Of a DNA stretch of 64,000 nt, positions 3,065 through 56,979 are shown piece after piece. The position numbers and the translations under genes were made by a program. Every line of letters starts with the position of its first letter. The first letter of the stretch is position 1. The stretch comes from Enterococcus cecorum (GTDB lineage Bacteria > Bacillota > Bacilli > Lactobacillales > Enterococcaceae): the NCBI RefSeq assembly GCF_052119425.1, contig NZ_JBQKFH010000011.1, positions 3,155 to 67,154 on the forward strand. The letters run 5' to 3'. Under the pieces are notes generated by a model. The model searched no databases, had not been told where the DNA came from, and saw only the letters and a list, made by a program, of their open reading frames with translations.

Positions 3065-5107
3065 TTATTCTTCAGTTGTATCATCTGGTGTGATTGTCGT
3101 ATCTTCATCAGATTGCGCTTGTTTTTTCGCATCACGTTCTTCTAGGGCACGTTTTGCTTCTTCATAACTTTGCGCTTTTTCACTTGGAAATTCAGATTCA
3201 TCTTGTGCAGGCATTTTCCCTGTTTCAAACAAGGACTTGATTGCCTTAGCATCTAATGTTTCAAACTCTAATAATTTTTCAGCAATTAATTTATGTTTGT
3301 CACGATGCGTTTCGATGATTTCACGTGCTTTATCATGAGCTTCCATCAAGATACGGCGAACTTCTTGGTCAATTTCATAAGCAATTTGTTCAGAATATGC
3401 TTTAGTTTGACCATAATCACGACCAATAAAGACTTGATGATTACCTTCGTATTGCACAGGTCCAAGCTTGTCACTCATACCATATTCAGTCACCATGCTG
3501 CGCGCTAAGGCTGTGGCTTGTTCAAAGTCATTGGAAGCCCCGGTAGATTGAACACCAAAGATAATTTCTTCAGCTGTACGTCCACCTAATAGACCAACAA
3601 TTTGTTCGAACATATCGTCTTTGGTTAACAACATTTGATCTTCTTTTGGTAAAGCAATCATGTAACCACCGGCGCGTCCACGAGGGATAATCGTTACCTT
3701 GTGTACAACACGCGCACGAGAAAGCACTAAACCAACAATGGTATGTCCGGCTTCGTGATAGGCCACCATTTCGCGCTCACGTTTACTAATGACGCGGTCT
3801 TTCTTAGCAGGACCAGCAATCACGCGGTCTTCAGCTTCATCAATATCAGAAGCATCGATTTTCGTTTTATTACGACGGGCAGCCACTAAAGCCGCTTCGT
3901 TTAAGACGTTTTCCAAATCAGCCCCGGCAAATCCTGGTGTTTGTTGGGCGATTACTTTCAAGTCGACGTCATCAGCCAATGGTTTATTTTTCGCATGGAC
4001 GCGTAAAATAGCTTCACGACCTTTGACATCGGGACGACCGACTAAAATTTGACGGTCAAATCGGCCTGGACGCAATAACGCTGGATCCAAGACGTCTGAA
4101 CGGTTGGTAGCAGCAATGACGATTACGCCTTCATTTCCACTGAAACCATCCATTTCAACAAGCAATTGGTTAAGGGTTTGTTCACGTTCATCATGTCCGC
4201 CACCCATACCAGCACCACGTTGACGACCCACTGCATCAATTTCATCGATAAAGATAATGGCTGGTGAGTTTTTCTTCGCAGTATCAAATAAATCACGTAC
4301 ACGACTTGCTCCGACCCCGACAAACATTTCTACAAAGTCTGAACCAGAGATAGAGTAAAATGGTACGCCTGCTTCACCGGCAACTGCTTTGGCTAATAAA
4401 GTTTTACCGGTTCCTGGAGGTCCTTCTAGTAACACCCCAGCTGGAATACGTGCACCTAATGCTGAGAAGCGACGTGGATCTTTTAAGAATTCCACCACTT
4501 CGACTAATTCTTGTTTTTCTTCTTCAGCCCCAGCTACGTCAGAGAAACGCACGCGGTTGGCTTTTTTATCGGCTTCTTTGGCTTTTGATTTACCAAAGTT
4601 CATCACGCCACGGCCACCACCGCCACCACCGGCTTGTTGACCCATAATCATGTAGAAGAAGAATATCATGATGACAAACGGCACCATGCTAATTAAGAAT
4701 GAAATCCAAACACCGCTGCTAGATTCTTCCTTAATGGTTGTATCTACGTTATGTGTTGCTGCCAAAGATGTAATTTCACTTAATGTGGAATCATTTGGCA
4801 AGACAATCGTTGTAAAACTCGTTGACTTCGTGCTAGTTGAACCTAGAATCGAAAGTCCACTGTTATTACTTACTGTTTGTTCATCTTTGTATTTCCCGCT
4901 AATTTTGTAGACGCCATTTGCCGGTTGTACGGAAAATGACTTGATTTTACCGTCTTCTAATTGCTCAGTAAATTTCGAGTAGTCAATCGATGGTGACTGA
5001 CTGCTACCATTGCCGACAAAGAAGATTAAAATCCCCGCCATTGCAAGAAGCACAAGGATGTAATATAAGGTATTTTTTAACATACCATTATTATTTTTTC
5101 TGTTCAT
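3065..5107 (-). CDS. ftsH: ATP-dependent zinc metalloprotease FtsH
   Basis: AAA+ Walker A GPPGTGKT, second region of homology (SRH) motif, HEAGH zinc site, N-terminal TM segments. Confidence 0.95.
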
Positions 5108-52349: not shown

Positions 52350-53362
52350 TCTTCATACCCCGCTACATCAGCAGTCACACGTTTTCTGAAGATATAGTAT
52401 GTCCAAGCAAAGTAAGCTAAGACAAATGGTAATAAAGTAATTGCGACAATACTCATAATCTTCAAGGTGTAAGGTGTTGAAGAAGCATTCTTAATCAATA
52501 AGTCAAATTTAGAACTGATTGAACTAATCATCACACGTGGGAATAAACCAGTAAATAGTAAAGCCACTAGTGAGACTAAAGTTAAACCACTGGCTAAAAA
52601 GGCTGCTAATTCTTTTCCTTTTAAGACTGAAATATTTGCAAAAACCGTTAATAACACGATTAACACCACTAAAGCTAAAGTTGTTGCAAAGTGTAGTTTA
52701 AAGAAGTCTGTTTGTAAGTATAATAGAATCGCAAATACGACTAAACCTGCGTAAAGTACGTAATATAAAACTTTCGCATAATCGCGCGCACGATGACGGA
52801 TTGGGCCATCTGTTTTTAGCGCGATATAGTTTAAGCCGTGTAAGTAGCAAAGTAAAGTTAAAGCAACGCCACCCACGATAGAGAAAATATTAAAGTAATC
52901 TGTAAAGTGAGCAGTCATATTTCCATTGGCATCTAAAGGCATTCCTTGAATCATGCTGATAAAGATAATCCCAAAGAAGAATGGCACGATAAAACTACCA
53001 ATCGTTAATGTCCAGTTCCAGAAATTCTTTTTACTTGGTTCGACTTTGTGACGGAATTCAAATGAAACCCCACGGATGATTAAACCAAATAAAATCGTGA
53101 ACAATAGTAGGTAATAACCACTGAACAATGAGGCATACCAGAAAGGAAATGACGCAAACATCGCTCCACCAGCAGTTAATAACCAAACTTCATTTCCATC
53201 CCAAACTGGGCCGATTGTCGCAACTAATTGATCTCTTTCTTTTTCATTTTTGGCTAATGTATGCATAGACATGCCCACACCATAGTCAAAACCTTCTAAA
53301 AAGAAATAACCTGAGAATAATACACCAATTAAGAAGAACCATAAAAGTTGTAAATTACTCAT
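52346..53362 (-). CDS. cydB: Cytochrome bd ubiquinol oxidase subunit II
   Basis: Start re-called at MSNLQL (53362), with a GGAGGTG SD inside the end of cydA (ATGAGTAA overlap); polytopic membrane protein. Confidence 0.85.
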   Translation of the reverse strand: MSNLQLLWFFLIGVLFSGYFFLEGFDYGVGMSMHTLAKNEKERDQLVATIGPVWDGNEVWLLTAGGAMFASFPFWYASLFSGYYLLLFTILFGLIIRGVSFEFRHKVEPSKKNFWNWTLTIGSFIVPFFFGIIFISMIQGMPLDANGNMTAHFTDYFNIFSIVGGVALTLLCYLHGLNYIALKTDGPIRHRARDYAKVLYYVLYAGLVVFAILLYLQTDFFKLHFATTLALVVLIVLLTVFANISVLKGKELAAFLASGLTLVSLVALLFTGLFPRVMISSISSKFDLLIKNASSTPYTLKIMSIVAITLLPFVLAYFAWTYYIFRKRVTADVAGYEE

Positions 53363-54797
53363 GAACGGCACCTCCTTCAAATGGATCGACCGGACTTTCT
53401 ACTGCGACTTCTTCTAATTCAGGGCCTTTGCGAACTTCTTTGACCACTAAAGTCACCATCACAGCAGCTAATCCTGTAAATAGTAAGAAGTAAATCGTAT
53501 TAGAAATTAATAATGAAGTAGTAGATACATTTGGTGACACACTATCCATGATGGTAAATACACCATAAACTGTCCATGGATAACGACCTAATTCAGTAAT
53601 TAACCAACCAGTTGTATTAGCTAAGAATGGCGCAAAAGTCGTTAAAGCCATGACCCAAATGACCCAACGTTTCTTAAATAGACTTGGATCTGGTTTTCTT
53701 GTCATCACTAGTCCAACGATTGAAACTAAAAGCATCAATACGCCAAAGCCAGCCATCACACGGAAGCTCCAGAACAAAGCATTTACTGGTGGGTAGAAGT
53801 TCAAATCTTCACCCGTTGATTTTTTGTAAGCTGCTACTTGATCTTTGAAATCTTTTTGGAACTGTTCGTTTAATTCGTTCATCCCTTTGATTTCTTTATT
53901 TGGGTTATTGAAAGCTAAAATCCCTAACATGTAAGGCACTTTCACCCCAAAGACTTCTTGTTTGTTTAATTCATCTGCCCAGCCGACGATGGTCCAAGCA
54001 TTGGTCTTTTCGTAAGCTCCTTCAGTGGCAGCTAATTTCATTGGTTGTGTTTCTACTAAGTCTTTCATTTGTAAGTCCCCAGCAAGTAACACGCCTAATG
54101 AACCGACTAAAGCAACGGTTAACCCTACACGAATAGATTTGCGGTAGAAGTCTTTGAATTTGTCTGTAAGATTTTTGTTGCGTAATAATTGGAAAGCCGT
54201 TAATCCAGCAACAATAATCCCACCCATTGTAATCGCCGCAGTAATGACGTGTGAGTATTCATACCAAGTTTGTGGGTTTTTAATTAAAGCGAAGAAATCA
54301 GTCATTTCCGCGCGACCATTACGTAGTGCATAGCCTGTTGGGTGTTGCATGAACGCATTGGCAATTAAAATCCACAAGGCAGATAACATCGAACCTAATG
54401 TTACCAACCAAATAAAGACTACGTGAAGTTTAGGACTTACTCGCTTCCAAGTAAACATCCATAGTCCTAAGAAAGTTGATTCCATAAAGAAAGCTAATAG
54501 GGCTTCAACAGCTAGCGGTGCACCGAAAATATCACCAACGAATCGAGAATAATCTGACCAGTTCATCCCGAATTGGAATTCTTGAATAATACCAGTAACG
54601 ACACCGACCGCAAAGCTTAGAAGAAAAATATTTCCCCAGAACTTAGCCATCTTTTTGTACATTTCGTCCTTTTTAACAACATACAGTGTTTCCATCACAG
54701 AAATTACTAAAGCGGTACCGATAGAAAAGGGTACGAAGAAATAGTGAAACACTGTTGTCATCGCAAATTGGAAACGTGCTAATGACACAATATCCAT
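53355..54797 (-). CDS. cydA: Cytochrome bd ubiquinol oxidase subunit I
   Basis: CydA conserved N-terminus (FHYFFVPFSIG), Q-loop region; GGAGG SD. Confidence 0.9.
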   Translation of the reverse strand: MDIVSLARFQFAMTTVFHYFFVPFSIGTALVISVMETLYVVKKDEMYKKMAKFWGNIFLLSFAVGVVTGIIQEFQFGMNWSDYSRFVGDIFGAPLAVEALLAFFMESTFLGLWMFTWKRVSPKLHVVFIWLVTLGSMLSALWILIANAFMQHPTGYALRNGRAEMTDFFALIKNPQTWYEYSHVITAAITMGGIIVAGLTAFQLLRNKNLTDKFKDFYRKSIRVGLTVALVGSLGVLLAGDLQMKDLVETQPMKLAATEGAYEKTNAWTIVGWADELNKQEVFGVKVPYMLGILAFNNPNKEIKGMNELNEQFQKDFKDQVAAYKKSTGEDLNFYPPVNALFWSFRVMAGFGVLMLLVSIVGLVMTRKPDPSLFKKRWVIWVMALTTFAPFLANTTGWLITELGRYPWTVYGVFTIMDSVSPNVSTTSLLISNTIYFLLFTGLAAVMVTLVVKEVRKGPELEEVAVESPVDPFEGGAVHE

Positions 54798-55377
54798 TTC
54801 AAATCCTCCAATATAAAATGATTTGCTCGAAAAACTTCAAGCAGTGACGAATAAAGCAAATCTCATCATCAGACATCGGACTTGCTACAAACAAACGGCT
54901 TTTCGCTGTACTCACTTATTTCAAACGGCTTATCAGTGAAATCAACAAAAAGTTTGTCCGAGTGATAAAAATAATGAAAATACATTCACTCTATAGCTTT
55001 ATTGTATACTTTTTTCTTATATTTTCAAAGATTTTATTTCGCACTTTATCATAAGTTTTTATTGAAATATCAAATAAAAAGAACAATTGCTATGTAAAAA
55101 TTTTATCATTTGACCCATTTTCATAAAAATACAAAACAAAAGATATTTTAATGTACGTTATCTATTTTTTAGTTAGAATAATTATAAATTTTATCAACCT
55201 ATCAAATTTATCCCTATTTTTCAACTTTATGAAAATTTAAGATAACATTTATTTATTTTTGAACAGAGATAAACATGTAGATATCAGTATTTAAATAGCA
55301 ACCACGGACATTCTTGTGGGGATTTTCTAGTTCGGGGTGAAGTTTTTTGGTCGATGCCTAGCTATTTTTAAAAAATT

Positions 55378-55490
55378 TGCTATAATGTAGATGAAAGCAA
55401 TCGTCCGTTTTTGACGGTCGCATAGTTATTTAGGCAAAATAGCCGTTCTAACCTCGCGAAAAAATTAAGTTAGAGGAACGGCTATTTTTC
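55378..55490 (+). ncRNA. Candidate small RNA 1: extended -10 promoter TGcTATAAT (55378-55386), a ~100-nt transcript and an intrinsic terminator
   Basis: Conserved core tccgtttttgacggtcgcata plus the GC-rich hairpin aatagccgttctaac...gttagaggaacggctattttt. Paralogous to 55585-55724. Confidence 0.45.
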
Positions 55491-55493
55491 TTG

Positions 55494-55541
55494 CCTTATT
55501 TTCCATATTTACACAAAAACCAGAGAATAAGTCCCTGGTTT
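55494..55541. repeat. 48-bp direct repeat copy 1 (hairpin AAAACCAG-N11-CTGGTTTT); also found at 56022-56069
   Basis: cttattttccatatttacacaaaaaccagagaataagtccctggttt versus ctattatttcccatatttacacaaaaaccagagagcaagtccctggttt. Confidence 0.6.
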
Positions 55542-55584
55542 TATAGTTGTAAAATTAAAAAAAATCGACAAATAAAAAAAAGTA

Positions 55585-55724
55585 TGCTAGAATACAAATG
55601 AAAAGAGGGACTGCTGGTACAATCCCCCTTATCAGAGATAGTCCGTTTTTGACGGTCGCATATTTATACTTGGCAAAATAGCCGTTCTAACGTAGCGAAA
55701 AAGTTAGAGGACGGCTATTTTTTC
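55585..55724 (+). ncRNA. Candidate small RNA 2 (paralog of sRNA 1): extended -10 TGcTAGAAT (55585-55593), a ~125-nt transcript and an intrinsic terminator
   Basis: Same core gtccgtttttgacggtcgcata, and the hairpin aatagccgttctaac..gttagaggacggctattttttc. Its 3' end converges on the peptide gene at 55757-55834. Confidence 0.45.
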
Positions 55725-55756
55725 TTGCCATTGTTGCCTAGGATTAAACCTATGAT

Positions 55757-55834
55757 TTAGATCACTAATGATAGCGTACCAAAAATCACCGCAACTACGA
55801 TTGAAATAATCGCAATAATGTCGCTGGCTGACAT
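55757..55834 (-). CDS. Unannotated 25-aa hydrophobic peptide (MSASDIIAIISIVVAVIFGTLSLVI), candidate type I toxin
   Basis: AAAGGAG SD 10 nt upstream of the ATG; a single predicted TM helix; convergent with sRNA 2 across its terminator. Putative minus-strand promoter TGaTAGAAT (plus coordinates 55926-55934). Confidence 0.4.
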   Translation of the reverse strand: MSASDIIAIISIVVAVIFGTLSLVI

Positions 55835-56021
55835 GAAAGCAAATCTCCTTTCTGATAGATTTTGCATAAGCACCACCTACTTCCAGTTGAATTTGCAACC
55901 GCCATAACTGCATATCTCAAAACTTATTCTATCACAAATTAATTTTAAATAAGAACAGAAATACCCCAATCATTTTCTCTTTTTTCGCTATATAATTTCA
56001 CTTAATTTTGAGAATTTTATC

Positions 56022-56069
56022 TATTATTTCCCATATTTACACAAAAACCAGAGAGCAAGTCCCTGGTTT
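56022..56069. repeat. 48-bp direct repeat copy 2, which doubles as the LysR-gene terminator
   Basis: See copy 1. It ends exactly at the LysR stop codon. Confidence 0.6.
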
Positions 56070-56979
56070 ATTTTGATGGATGAAAATGTTGTAAATAGTC
56101 TTTCAGTCGCGTCAAAAAGCTTTCCGCCATATCTGAAAGGACACGGTCTTTTTGATGAATCGCAATTAACTGACTTTTCGGCGCATTGGCTAGCGGAATC
56201 AGTAAAATCCCCTGCGAAGGCCCATCTTCTACCAAGCCAGAGCCAGAACCATAGGCATTTGTGCGTGTTAAGATACCGGTTAATGTCGCGCGGTCAGAGG
56301 CGTGAATGACCTGCACCACCTCTGGAAAATCCAATAAATCCTCTGAAAAATAAGTATAATGGTCACTTTCTTGTGAGAAACGGATTTGCGGATAAGGCAT
56401 TAAATCATCTAAGGTAATCTCTGCTTTGGTCGCTAAAGGATGATTTTCACCTAAAAAGATATGCGTTTGAAACTCATGCAACACCTCATAAGTCAGCTCA
56501 CTAGCCTTAAACATCCGCTCTAAAGCTACTTTATTGGAAGCATTCAGATATAAAATACCCAATTCACTACGATATTCTTCCACATCTTTAATCACGCTCA
56601 AAGTCGTATTTTCGTATATGCGGAAAGATTCACACTCTGGAAAATCCTGAATCATCTCGCTTAGAATAATAGATAAGAAATCATAGTGCTGACTGGCAAT
56701 CGAAAAATGCTTGGTATGATCGCTTTTCGTGGCATAACGATTTTCAAGCAACTCCACTTGCGATAAAATTTGTTGCGCATATTGGAAAAAATCGCTACCT
56801 TCTTTAGTCAGATAGGCCCCTTGACTCGTGCGTTCAAATAGTTGCACATTTAATTCTTGTTCTAATTCTTTAATCGCATGGGACAGACTCGGTTGCGATA
56901 CATAGAGTTTTTTGGCTGCTTCTCGAAAACTCCCATTATTCGCAATCGCCGTCACATAACGCATTTGTTGAATATTCAT
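56068..56979 (-). CDS. LysR-family transcriptional regulator
   Basis: N-terminal HTH (MNIQQMRYVTAIANNGSFREAAKKLYVSQPSLSHAIKELE) plus a substrate-binding domain. Confidence 0.85.
   Translation of the reverse strand: MNIQQMRYVTAIANNGSFREAAKKLYVSQPSLSHAIKELEQELNVQLFERTSQGAYLTKEGSDFFQYAQQILSQVELLENRYATKSDHTKHFSIASQHYDFLSIILSEMIQDFPECESFRIYENTTLSVIKDVEEYRSELGILYLNASNKVALERMFKASELTYEVLHEFQTHIFLGENHPLATKAEITLDDLMPYPQIRFSQESDHYTYFSEDLLDFPEVVQVIHASDRATLTGILTRTNAYGSGSGLVEDGPSQGILLIPLANAPKSQLIAIHQKDRVLSDMAESFLTRLKDYLQHFHPSK

Follow-up and report, generated by a model that had tools for sequence, protein, structure and literature searches.

Does the toxin gene between cydA and a lysR-type regulator gene of Enterococcus cecorum, a gut bacterium of chickens, answer to one antitoxin RNA or to two? 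In the 64,000-nt stretch analyzed here (the window; positions 3,155 to 67,154 of contig NZ_JBQKFH010000011.1, assembly GCF_052119425.1), this intergenic region holds a gene for a short hydrophobic peptide, the predicted toxin; a small RNA (sRNA) convergent with it, sRNA2; and a second, non-overlapping sRNA, sRNA1, whose predicted 5' end is complementary to the translation-initiation region of the toxin mRNA. An earlier note on this DNA proposed that sRNA1 blocks toxin translation in trans, following the logic of the par system. We conclude with high confidence that the complementarity is non-random. That this pairing actually represses toxin translation is a tentative reading, to which we assign a probability of roughly 0.4. 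The finding rests entirely on computation.

The two complementary sites form a near-direct repeat in the DNA, GATGAAAGCAATC at 55390-55402 and CATGAAAGCAAATC at 55832-55845; the earlier note had placed the second copy exactly and the first one base too far to the right (55391-55403). As it had also proposed, the second copy covers the start codon and the adjoining spacer; read on the minus strand, CAT at 55832-55834 gives the ATG of the peptide open reading frame (ORF). The predicted target, the toxin initiation region (55832-55858, minus strand), comprises this ATG (55834-55832), a 10-nt spacer, and the Shine-Dalgarno (SD) sequence GGAG (55848-55845). Counting both strands, the window has just two copies of the repeated ATGAAAGCAA (55391-55400 and 55833-55842), against 0.61 expected. 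The pairing described earlier holds, with 10 contiguous Watson-Crick pairs plus UC/GA across a 1-nt bulge and a 14-mer duplex of -13.1 kcal/mol. Yet the match, of about 25 nt, is longer than had been noted: sRNA1 55391-55414 aligns to the strand opposite the toxin initiation region (55833-55855) with 21 identical positions, three gaps, and one mismatch. Alignment and duplex tests thus delimit an anti-initiation-region segment in sRNA1, AUGAAAGCAA-UC...UCC.UUUUUGA (55391-55414, plus strand). The predicted duplex spans the AU of AUG, the spacer, the GGA of the SD sequence, and then UCAGAAA upstream. The idea that pairing lies directly over the AUG is therefore correct for a transcript starting at 55391; if transcription starts at G55393, which is the more usual spacing, two AUG pairs are lost and the spacer and SD sequence are still covered.

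Chance is a poor explanation for a match of this strength. The 28-mer duplex has an energy of -23.3 kcal/mol: this places it in the bottom 0.15% of the 31,986 natural 28-mers drawn from the window, 0.13% of shuffles score as low, and local DNA alignment of the segment with the initiation region gives p = 0.0005. When the first 45 nt of sRNA1 were allowed to pair at any position of the whole non-terminator toxin mRNA, p was 0.0017 against dinucleotide shuffles and 0.0029 against natural 45-mers. Extending the duplex to 41 nt lowers its energy to -28.8 kcal/mol, but p rises to 0.006, so significance is not improved. The par-type arrangement, in which direct repeats give the antitoxin a complementary 5' end, is thus present in sRNA1 (p = 0.0005-0.003) but not in sRNA2. 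The latter shares only the ATGAAA part, as stated previously, and its pairing with the initiation region is not significant (p = 0.43 and 0.24); a segment of its own directed against the initiation region or SD sequence was dropped on these grounds.

The complementarity is also kept among strains. We compared 31 related E. cecorum-type loci; a metagenome scan with a promoter-to-core pattern returned no loci, and a looser core pattern returned three more. All 22 toxin-bearing loci with an sRNA1-type 5' end retain the complementarity, with the seed (A/G)TG(A/G)AAGCAATCG in each. Both variable positions are A or G only, which gives G-U against U. Duplex energies range from -20.1 to -23.3 kcal/mol in 21 of these loci, while for the remaining one, L026, the 5' sequence only was read. 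Pairing potential is kept in 28/28 of the sRNA1-bearing strain loci examined, with one disruptive change, found in a toxin-less locus. Outgroups point to an ancestral G at 55394, which suggests that the perfect 10-mer of the window is derived; in L031 the perfect 10-mer stands beside a toxin that is intact. The initiation region itself is invariant, with no segregating site in 26 nt (55835-55860) of the 10 full-length loci aligned.

To which family does this module belong? Its sequence features let us assign it with high confidence, as a putative, diverged type I toxin-antitoxin module, to the Rli28/RatA family ("holin-like toxin", TxpA/BsrG-type). The locus has the generic marks of a type I system, namely, a short hydrophobic ORF with an SD sequence and an antisense sRNA complementary to its mRNA, together with the Rli28/RatA layout: convergent genes, a stop codon inside a shared bidirectional terminator, and a two-hairpin antitoxin. 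The toxin mRNA matches Rfam rli28 with 37.3 bits (E = 0.011, over 55941-55752) and sRNA2 matches RatA with 23.5 bits. Neither reaches the gathering threshold (45 bits for rli28, RF01492; 49 bits for RatA, RF01776), yet the two matches are convergent, as expected for an rli28/RatA pair; sRNA1 gives no match. An nhmmer profile made from the RatA-like sRNAs of 10 plasmid loci finds its best window match in sRNA2 (E = 0.013). At the protein level, neither the 25- nor the 39-residue form of the peptide matches Hol_Tox (PF16935, cut-off 23.3 bits), against which the plasmid toxins score 38 bits, and nothing meaningful was found for the peptide in Pfam, NCBIfam, or PHROGs. An hhalign comparison of the toxin subfamily with the plasmid toxins reaches only 65% probability, with the C-terminal half aligned, and UniRef labels the E. 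cecorum protein 'Holin-like toxin'. Searches with the locus against plasmids and phages (blastn) and with the 25-residue peptide against plasmids (tblastn) gave no match. The peptide has no match to the Fst family in Pfam or NCBIfam (E ≤ 10), and no par antitoxin RNA is in the Rfam match list of the window (E ≤ 10). The par likeness seen in the earlier note is borne out in its convergent genes, shared bidirectional terminator, and direct repeat, but not in descent, and a par/Fst identity was dropped in favor of Rli28/RatA.

The chromosomal locus is bridged to this family by mobile-element homologs that pass Rfam thresholds. A protein search recovered toxin homologs with 67-69% identity in E. 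cecorum and 'Ca. Streptococcus faecavium', both in mobile-element contexts: the E. cecorum paralog (P0005) adjoins a UPF0236 transposase and an ImmA/HTH gene, and the 'Ca. Streptococcus faecavium' homolog adjoins Replic_Relax and RadC. The corresponding modules are L050 (1394-1760, E. cecorum GCA_034090505.1) and L043, L053, and L055 ('Ca. Streptococcus faecavium', metagenomes). These homologs score 52.4, 44.6, and 44.2 bits against rli28, and their antitoxins score 50.7 (L055), 45.9 (L043), and 34 bits (L050) against RatA. In each of the 10 plasmid loci, from Enterococcus, Listeria, Staphylococcus, and Vagococcus, an rli28 match (76-163 bits) is convergent with a RatA match (31-53 bits), and the toxins match Pfam Hol_Tox. 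RNAalifold on the plasmid RatA alignment recovers the core hairpin only, with hairpin 1 misaligned. In Listeria plasmids, rli28 overlaps a BsrH-like ORF and faces ratA (PMC9484302). TxpA-family loci occur in multiple copies in enterococci, with six in E. faecalis V583; toxicity and a 3' antisense RNA have been described for EF3263 (PMC2887945).

Rli28/RatA loci on Listeria, Enterococcus, and Staphylococcus plasmids resemble the E. cecorum locus in their small hydrophobic toxin, which ends in K-K-stop inside the A-rich arm of the terminator, and their sRNAs resemble sRNA2 in the 5' AUGAAAAGAG, hairpin 1, the CCGUU...GACGG core hairpin, and the shared bidirectional terminator. Unlike these relatives, E. 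cecorum has a 39-residue toxin without a PF16935 match, a U-rich rather than A-rich core loop (UUUUUG), and an additional orphan sRNA that lacks hairpin 1; in the other members examined, no sRNA 5' end pairs significantly with the initiation region, as that of sRNA1 does here.

The cis-encoded RatA-like antitoxin of the module, sRNA2 (about 55600-55726, plus strand), is recognized by its Rfam and nhmmer matches and its complementarity to the toxin mRNA. Its promoter (TCGACA, 17-nt spacer, TG-n-TAGAAT; TGCTAGAAT, 55565-55593, plus strand) agrees with 10/12 consensus positions and has an extended -10. Downstream lie hairpin 1 (55603-55630) and the core hairpin (55643-55655), both on the plus strand, and the bidirectional terminator common to sRNA2 and the toxin mRNA (55675-55721). 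With the 3' end of the toxin mRNA, sRNA2 forms a perfect 55-bp duplex (hybridization, -97.1 kcal/mol; net, -53.3 kcal/mol).

The orphan RNA, sRNA1 (about 55391-55492, plus strand), which the earlier note had called an orphan copy, is a separate promoter-to-terminator unit and a paralog of the cis antitoxin. Its promoter, an extended -10 TGCTATAAT with a weak -35 (55378-55386, plus strand), is homologous to that of sRNA2; ATGAAA follows the -10 after 4 nt in both; and core and terminator are 91-93% identical to those of sRNA2. The predicted fold (-28.9 kcal/mol) has a long terminator stem (55436-55488, plus strand) with a U-run at 55485-55489. sRNA1 lacks about 37 nt, among them hairpin 1, a feature of all RatA-like sRNAs; GCAATC stands in their place. 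On the 3' side of the terminator is CTTGCC, a leftover of the last codons of the toxin (GGC AAG...), and directly after it comes REP1 (55496-55541), a second copy of the lysR terminator region with 93% identity to REP2, the lysR terminator itself (56024-56069, minus strand), which forms the module boundary. Relative to the second unit, 290 bp are absent (corresponding to 55734-56023), covering toxin ORF, leader, and promoter. Because of the shared promoter, core, and terminator, the CTTGCC remnant, and the missing 290 bp, sRNA1 is by all appearances what remains of a duplicated unit: its antitoxin, left behind after deletion of the toxin gene. By the same comparison, the apparent loss of hairpin 1 places the conserved 5' AUGAAAG beside CAAUC and the U-rich core loop, and would thereby have given sRNA1 its anti-start-site 5' end, a stretch of about 24 nt that could pair with the toxin mRNA starting at the AUG or at position -1 and reaching through the spacer as far as the SD sequence.

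Further exchange between the copies is suggested by the strain loci, which show several architectures: two sRNAs and a toxin; a hybrid sRNA, with the 5' end of sRNA1 and the cis terminator, beside an intact 39-residue toxin (L010, L024, L027, L029, L033, and L034); sRNA1 without a toxin (L009, L012, L025, L035, and L036); and an orphan sRNA2-type RNA beside a Phd/Fic island (L006 and L007). In the six hybrid loci, the hybrid sRNA is the only antitoxin next to the toxin. Recombination between the sRNA cores, which lie 238 bp apart, or between the REPs would explain the toxin-less and hybrid variants, and REP1/REP2 recombination in particular would explain the toxin-less L009, L012, L035, and L036. 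In L016 and L019, sRNA1 and sRNA2 have exchanged the variable stretch that follows the core (55425-55435 and 55663-55674), which reads either CATAGTTAT-TTAGG or CATATTTATACTTGG; the pattern indicates gene conversion or crossing-over between the sRNA copies.

The toxin gene in the window is a nonsense allele. The mRNA (about 55672-55918, minus strand) is predicted to start from the promoter TGATAGAAT (55934-55926, minus strand), and the ORF spans 55715-55834 on the same strand up to its ancestral TAG (55717-55715). A TAA at 55759-55757 (codon 26) leaves 25 residues; read through, the translation is MSASDIIAIISIVVAVIFGTLSLVI, stop, IIGLILGNNGKKK, stop. The ancestral frame encodes a hydrophobic protein of 39 residues that ends in ...GNNGKKK, and the full-length ORF closes with ...GKKK-TAG inside AAAAAATAGCCGTC, a stop codon within the terminator being typical of the family. 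Codon 26 is CAA in 19/23 toxin-bearing loci, which encode the 39-residue protein; TAA is restricted to the window, L003, L008, and L032. The truncation removes the C-terminal half, the portion that hhalign aligns with the plasmid toxins, and the toxin of this strain is probably inactive, to judge from this allele.

How, then, might sRNA1 work? In the reading that we favor, sRNA1 would be a second, non-overlapping antitoxin, paralogous to the cis-encoded sRNA2. It would first dock on the toxin mRNA via its partly complementary terminator, the loop GCGAAAAA facing UUUUUCGC, and its 5' end would then occlude the toxin ribosome-binding site, like RNA II in par or SprA1AS in trans. Such a two-step, par-like pathway, with terminator-loop contact preceding 5' pairing, is conceivable as a model. 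The contact between sRNA1 and the toxin terminator in trans is the strongest predicted for sRNA1 (hybridization, -72.9 kcal/mol; net, -30.2 kcal/mol), and the terminator loop GCGAAAAA facing UUUUUCGC is kept. RNAcofold of the full RNAs returns the terminator duplex only; simultaneous 5' and 3' contacts cross topologically and so lie outside its model.

Several results count against translational repression by sRNA1. Allowing for the unfolding of both RNAs, every allele is left with a net 5' pairing energy of just -2 to -4 kcal/mol; G7, C8, and AUCG of the seed are paired in sRNA1's own stem, and the target CUUUC is held in a local hairpin with GAAAG, which the predicted fold of the toxin mRNA places around the SD sequence. 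The comparison of interaction energies with controls thus divides: hybridization beats the shuffles, but the accessibility-corrected net is weak. With an invariant initiation region, covariation cannot be assessed. Throughout sRNA1, nucleotide diversity stands at 0.07-0.08, versus 0.005-0.04 in sRNA2, a difference of about 10-fold, and the seed is no better conserved than the remaining sRNA1. Of the variable seed sites, 4/5 are pairing compatible against about 50-64% expected by a hand estimate, which is not significant. The start of sRNA1 is placed from the TGCTATAAT promoter only (55391-55394, with G55393 or A55394 at least as likely as A55391, given that TATAAT ends at 55386), its expression is predicted, and the -35 is weak. 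Some alleles carry promoter lesions (a 1-nt deletion in the -10 of L004 and L025, TATAGT replacing TATAAT in L024, and a missing TG in L026) or core-hairpin changes (G55407A and T55404G). Cognate antitoxins of the relatives lack such pairing: against their own initiation regions, neither the 10 from plasmids (p = 0.12-0.7) nor the 4 from mobile elements (p = 0.2-0.9) show significant 5' complementarity. Start-site complementarity is therefore specific to sRNA1, and antitoxin 5' pairing as a general Rli28/RatA trait was dropped. In txpA/RatA, the founding pair, complementarity to the initiation region is absent, and characterized TxpA/BsrG-group antitoxins act through 3' overlap (PMC4147584). 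Finally, because the toxin of the window is truncated, regulation in this strain may be vestigial. For the proposal of trans-acting translational blocking, what speaks in its favor is a pairing that is non-random, specific to sRNA1, and kept among strains, together with the six hybrid loci, where the sRNA1-type 5' end belongs to the sole antitoxin of an intact toxin; what speaks against it is the weak net energy, the absence of compensatory changes, and a family habit of acting through 3' overlap.

Much of this evidence would also fit a neutral relic, that is, a decaying leftover of a tandem duplication in which the match is a by-product with no regulatory consequence. The match could have arisen when removal of hairpin 1 aligned AUGAAAG, CAAUC, and the core loop, or possibly by a microhomology-mediated template switch at ATGAAA/TC, and all three matching pieces are already found in sRNA2 in the same order. 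The high diversity of sRNA1, its seed without extra conservation, the promoter and hairpin lesions, the weak corrected energy, and the family norm (PMC4147584) all point this way, as does the persistence of sRNA1 with further lesions in the five toxin-less loci (for instance, the -10 deletion of L025, GACAG in the core of L035, and the seed ATGGCAGCAA in L036). On the other hand, a match this strong would arise by chance with p of about 0.002, and its position coincides precisely with the 5' end of the sRNA and with the SD-AUG region; in most alleles, the promoter (TATAAT included) and the terminator have stayed intact; and all seed polymorphisms in toxin-bearing loci keep the pairing. Diversity in sRNA1 is also about half that of the spacer just upstream (0.08 versus 0.14); set between this spacer and sRNA2, the constraint on sRNA1 appears at best moderate. 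We regard the relic as a possible explanation, though a somewhat doubtful one.

A further alternative keeps sRNA1 active but makes the 5' match incidental: like RatA or SR4, it would pair in trans with the terminator and 3' untranslated region of the toxin mRNA, with RNase III-type decay or a change of structure as the outcome. The terminator contact is by far the strongest predicted, its loop GCGAAAAA is conserved, and the mechanism is established for txpA/RatA and bsrG/SR4 of Bacillus subtilis (PMC4147584). However, this mismatched duplex is much weaker than that of the co-resident sRNA2, so that sRNA1 would add little, and the significant 5' complementarity is left unexplained; we consider this alternative unlikely.

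The weakest alternative is anti-addiction, in which sRNA1 would mainly neutralize homologous toxins on incoming mobile elements rather than the resident one: it draws on the 67-69% identical toxin paralogs in mobile-element-like contexts, on the E. cecorum paralog whose start region includes the identical GGAGATTTGCTTTCATG, on predicted pairing of the sRNA1 28-mer with paralog initiation regions (-20.3 kcal/mol, p = 0.008; -18.8 kcal/mol, p = 0.012-0.014), and on the persistence of sRNA1 in toxin-less strains, but this pairing is weaker than with the resident toxin and the orphan copies in toxin-less loci carry lesions consistent with decay, which makes it very improbable. If sRNA1 were instead a chromosomal immunity RNA, using its rearranged 5' end to block holin-like toxins of mobile elements as well as the resident one, which we rate a long shot, its retention beside the module and in toxin-less strains would be explained, and the loss of one hairpin would have turned a RatA-type antitoxin into a par-like translational blocker.

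Repression of toxin translation by the 5' end of sRNA1, the reading we favor, has precedents in other type I systems. In Staphylococcus aureus SprA1/SprA1AS, the antitoxin represses translation via a 5' domain outside the overlap, and in multi-copy systems such as SprG/SprF, paralogous antitoxins can act on non-cognate copies. The likeness to both is one of idea, and the function of sRNA1 is a prediction. The par system of pAD1 (Fst; RNA I/RNA II) shares with this locus convergent transcripts, a common terminator, and direct repeats that give 5' complementarity. It differs in that the window's complementarity belongs to the separate, non-overlapping sRNA1 rather than to the cis antitoxin, and in that the toxin is not Fst-like. 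The natural hybrid allele of the L010 type has exactly par's two-site layout. In par, DRa/DRb pairing blocks ribosome binding, and a dual-action idea has been put forward for bsrG/SR4 (PMC4147584); the mechanism proposed here matches both, while descent is from Rli28/RatA.

If sRNA1 is functional, one type I module would have two antitoxin RNAs with different modes, one with a cis 3' overlap and the other a truncated paralog at the ribosome-binding site, and a simple deletion could switch the mechanism of an antitoxin. If it is not, the locus would hold an ordinary duplicate undergoing decay, in a hotspot for toxin-antitoxin and defense genes that is prone to recombination. The strain polymorphism offers ready-made variants in the form of two-sRNA, hybrid single-sRNA, orphan-only, and nonsense-toxin alleles.

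Some minor observations concern the sRNAs and their surroundings. Both sRNAs contain ATG-led mini-ORFs, of 7 codons in sRNA1 (from 55391) and 27 residues in sRNA2 (55598-55681); a coding role was dropped, as the ATG of the pCF10 and Staphylococcus homologs has TAA as its next codon. The 5' arm of hairpin 1 (55603-55611 in the window; also in plasmid loci L020-L023 and L037-L042) looks like an SD/initiation region itself (AAAGGAG, AAAGAGG), and the initiation region of the toxin (55858-55835, minus strand) is a weak match (E = 3.4) of the plasmid RatA profile. The leader of cydA (gene at 53355-54797, minus strand) holds, at 54853-54864 on the minus strand, an exact 12-nt copy of AAAGCAAATCTC from the toxin initiation region. 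As a second sRNA1 target it was dropped (p = 0.43 versus shuffles, and the site is polymorphic), and the copy is probably due to chance. The roughly 100 nt on the 5' side of the sRNA1 promoter (55270-55377) are, outside the locus edges, the most diverse part of the alignment (0.14), with two deep haplotypes, and a terminator-like hairpin lies there on the plus strand (55302-55319) without an obvious upstream gene. On the far side of the module is the lysR-type regulator gene (56068-56979, minus strand). The lysR-cydA region of L006, L007, L028, and L031 also houses a Phd/YefM-Fic (Doc-like) module, joined in L006 and L007 by a type I restriction-modification gene (HsdM), and from its gene content the cydA-lysR gap looks like a hotspot for toxin-antitoxin and defense cassettes.

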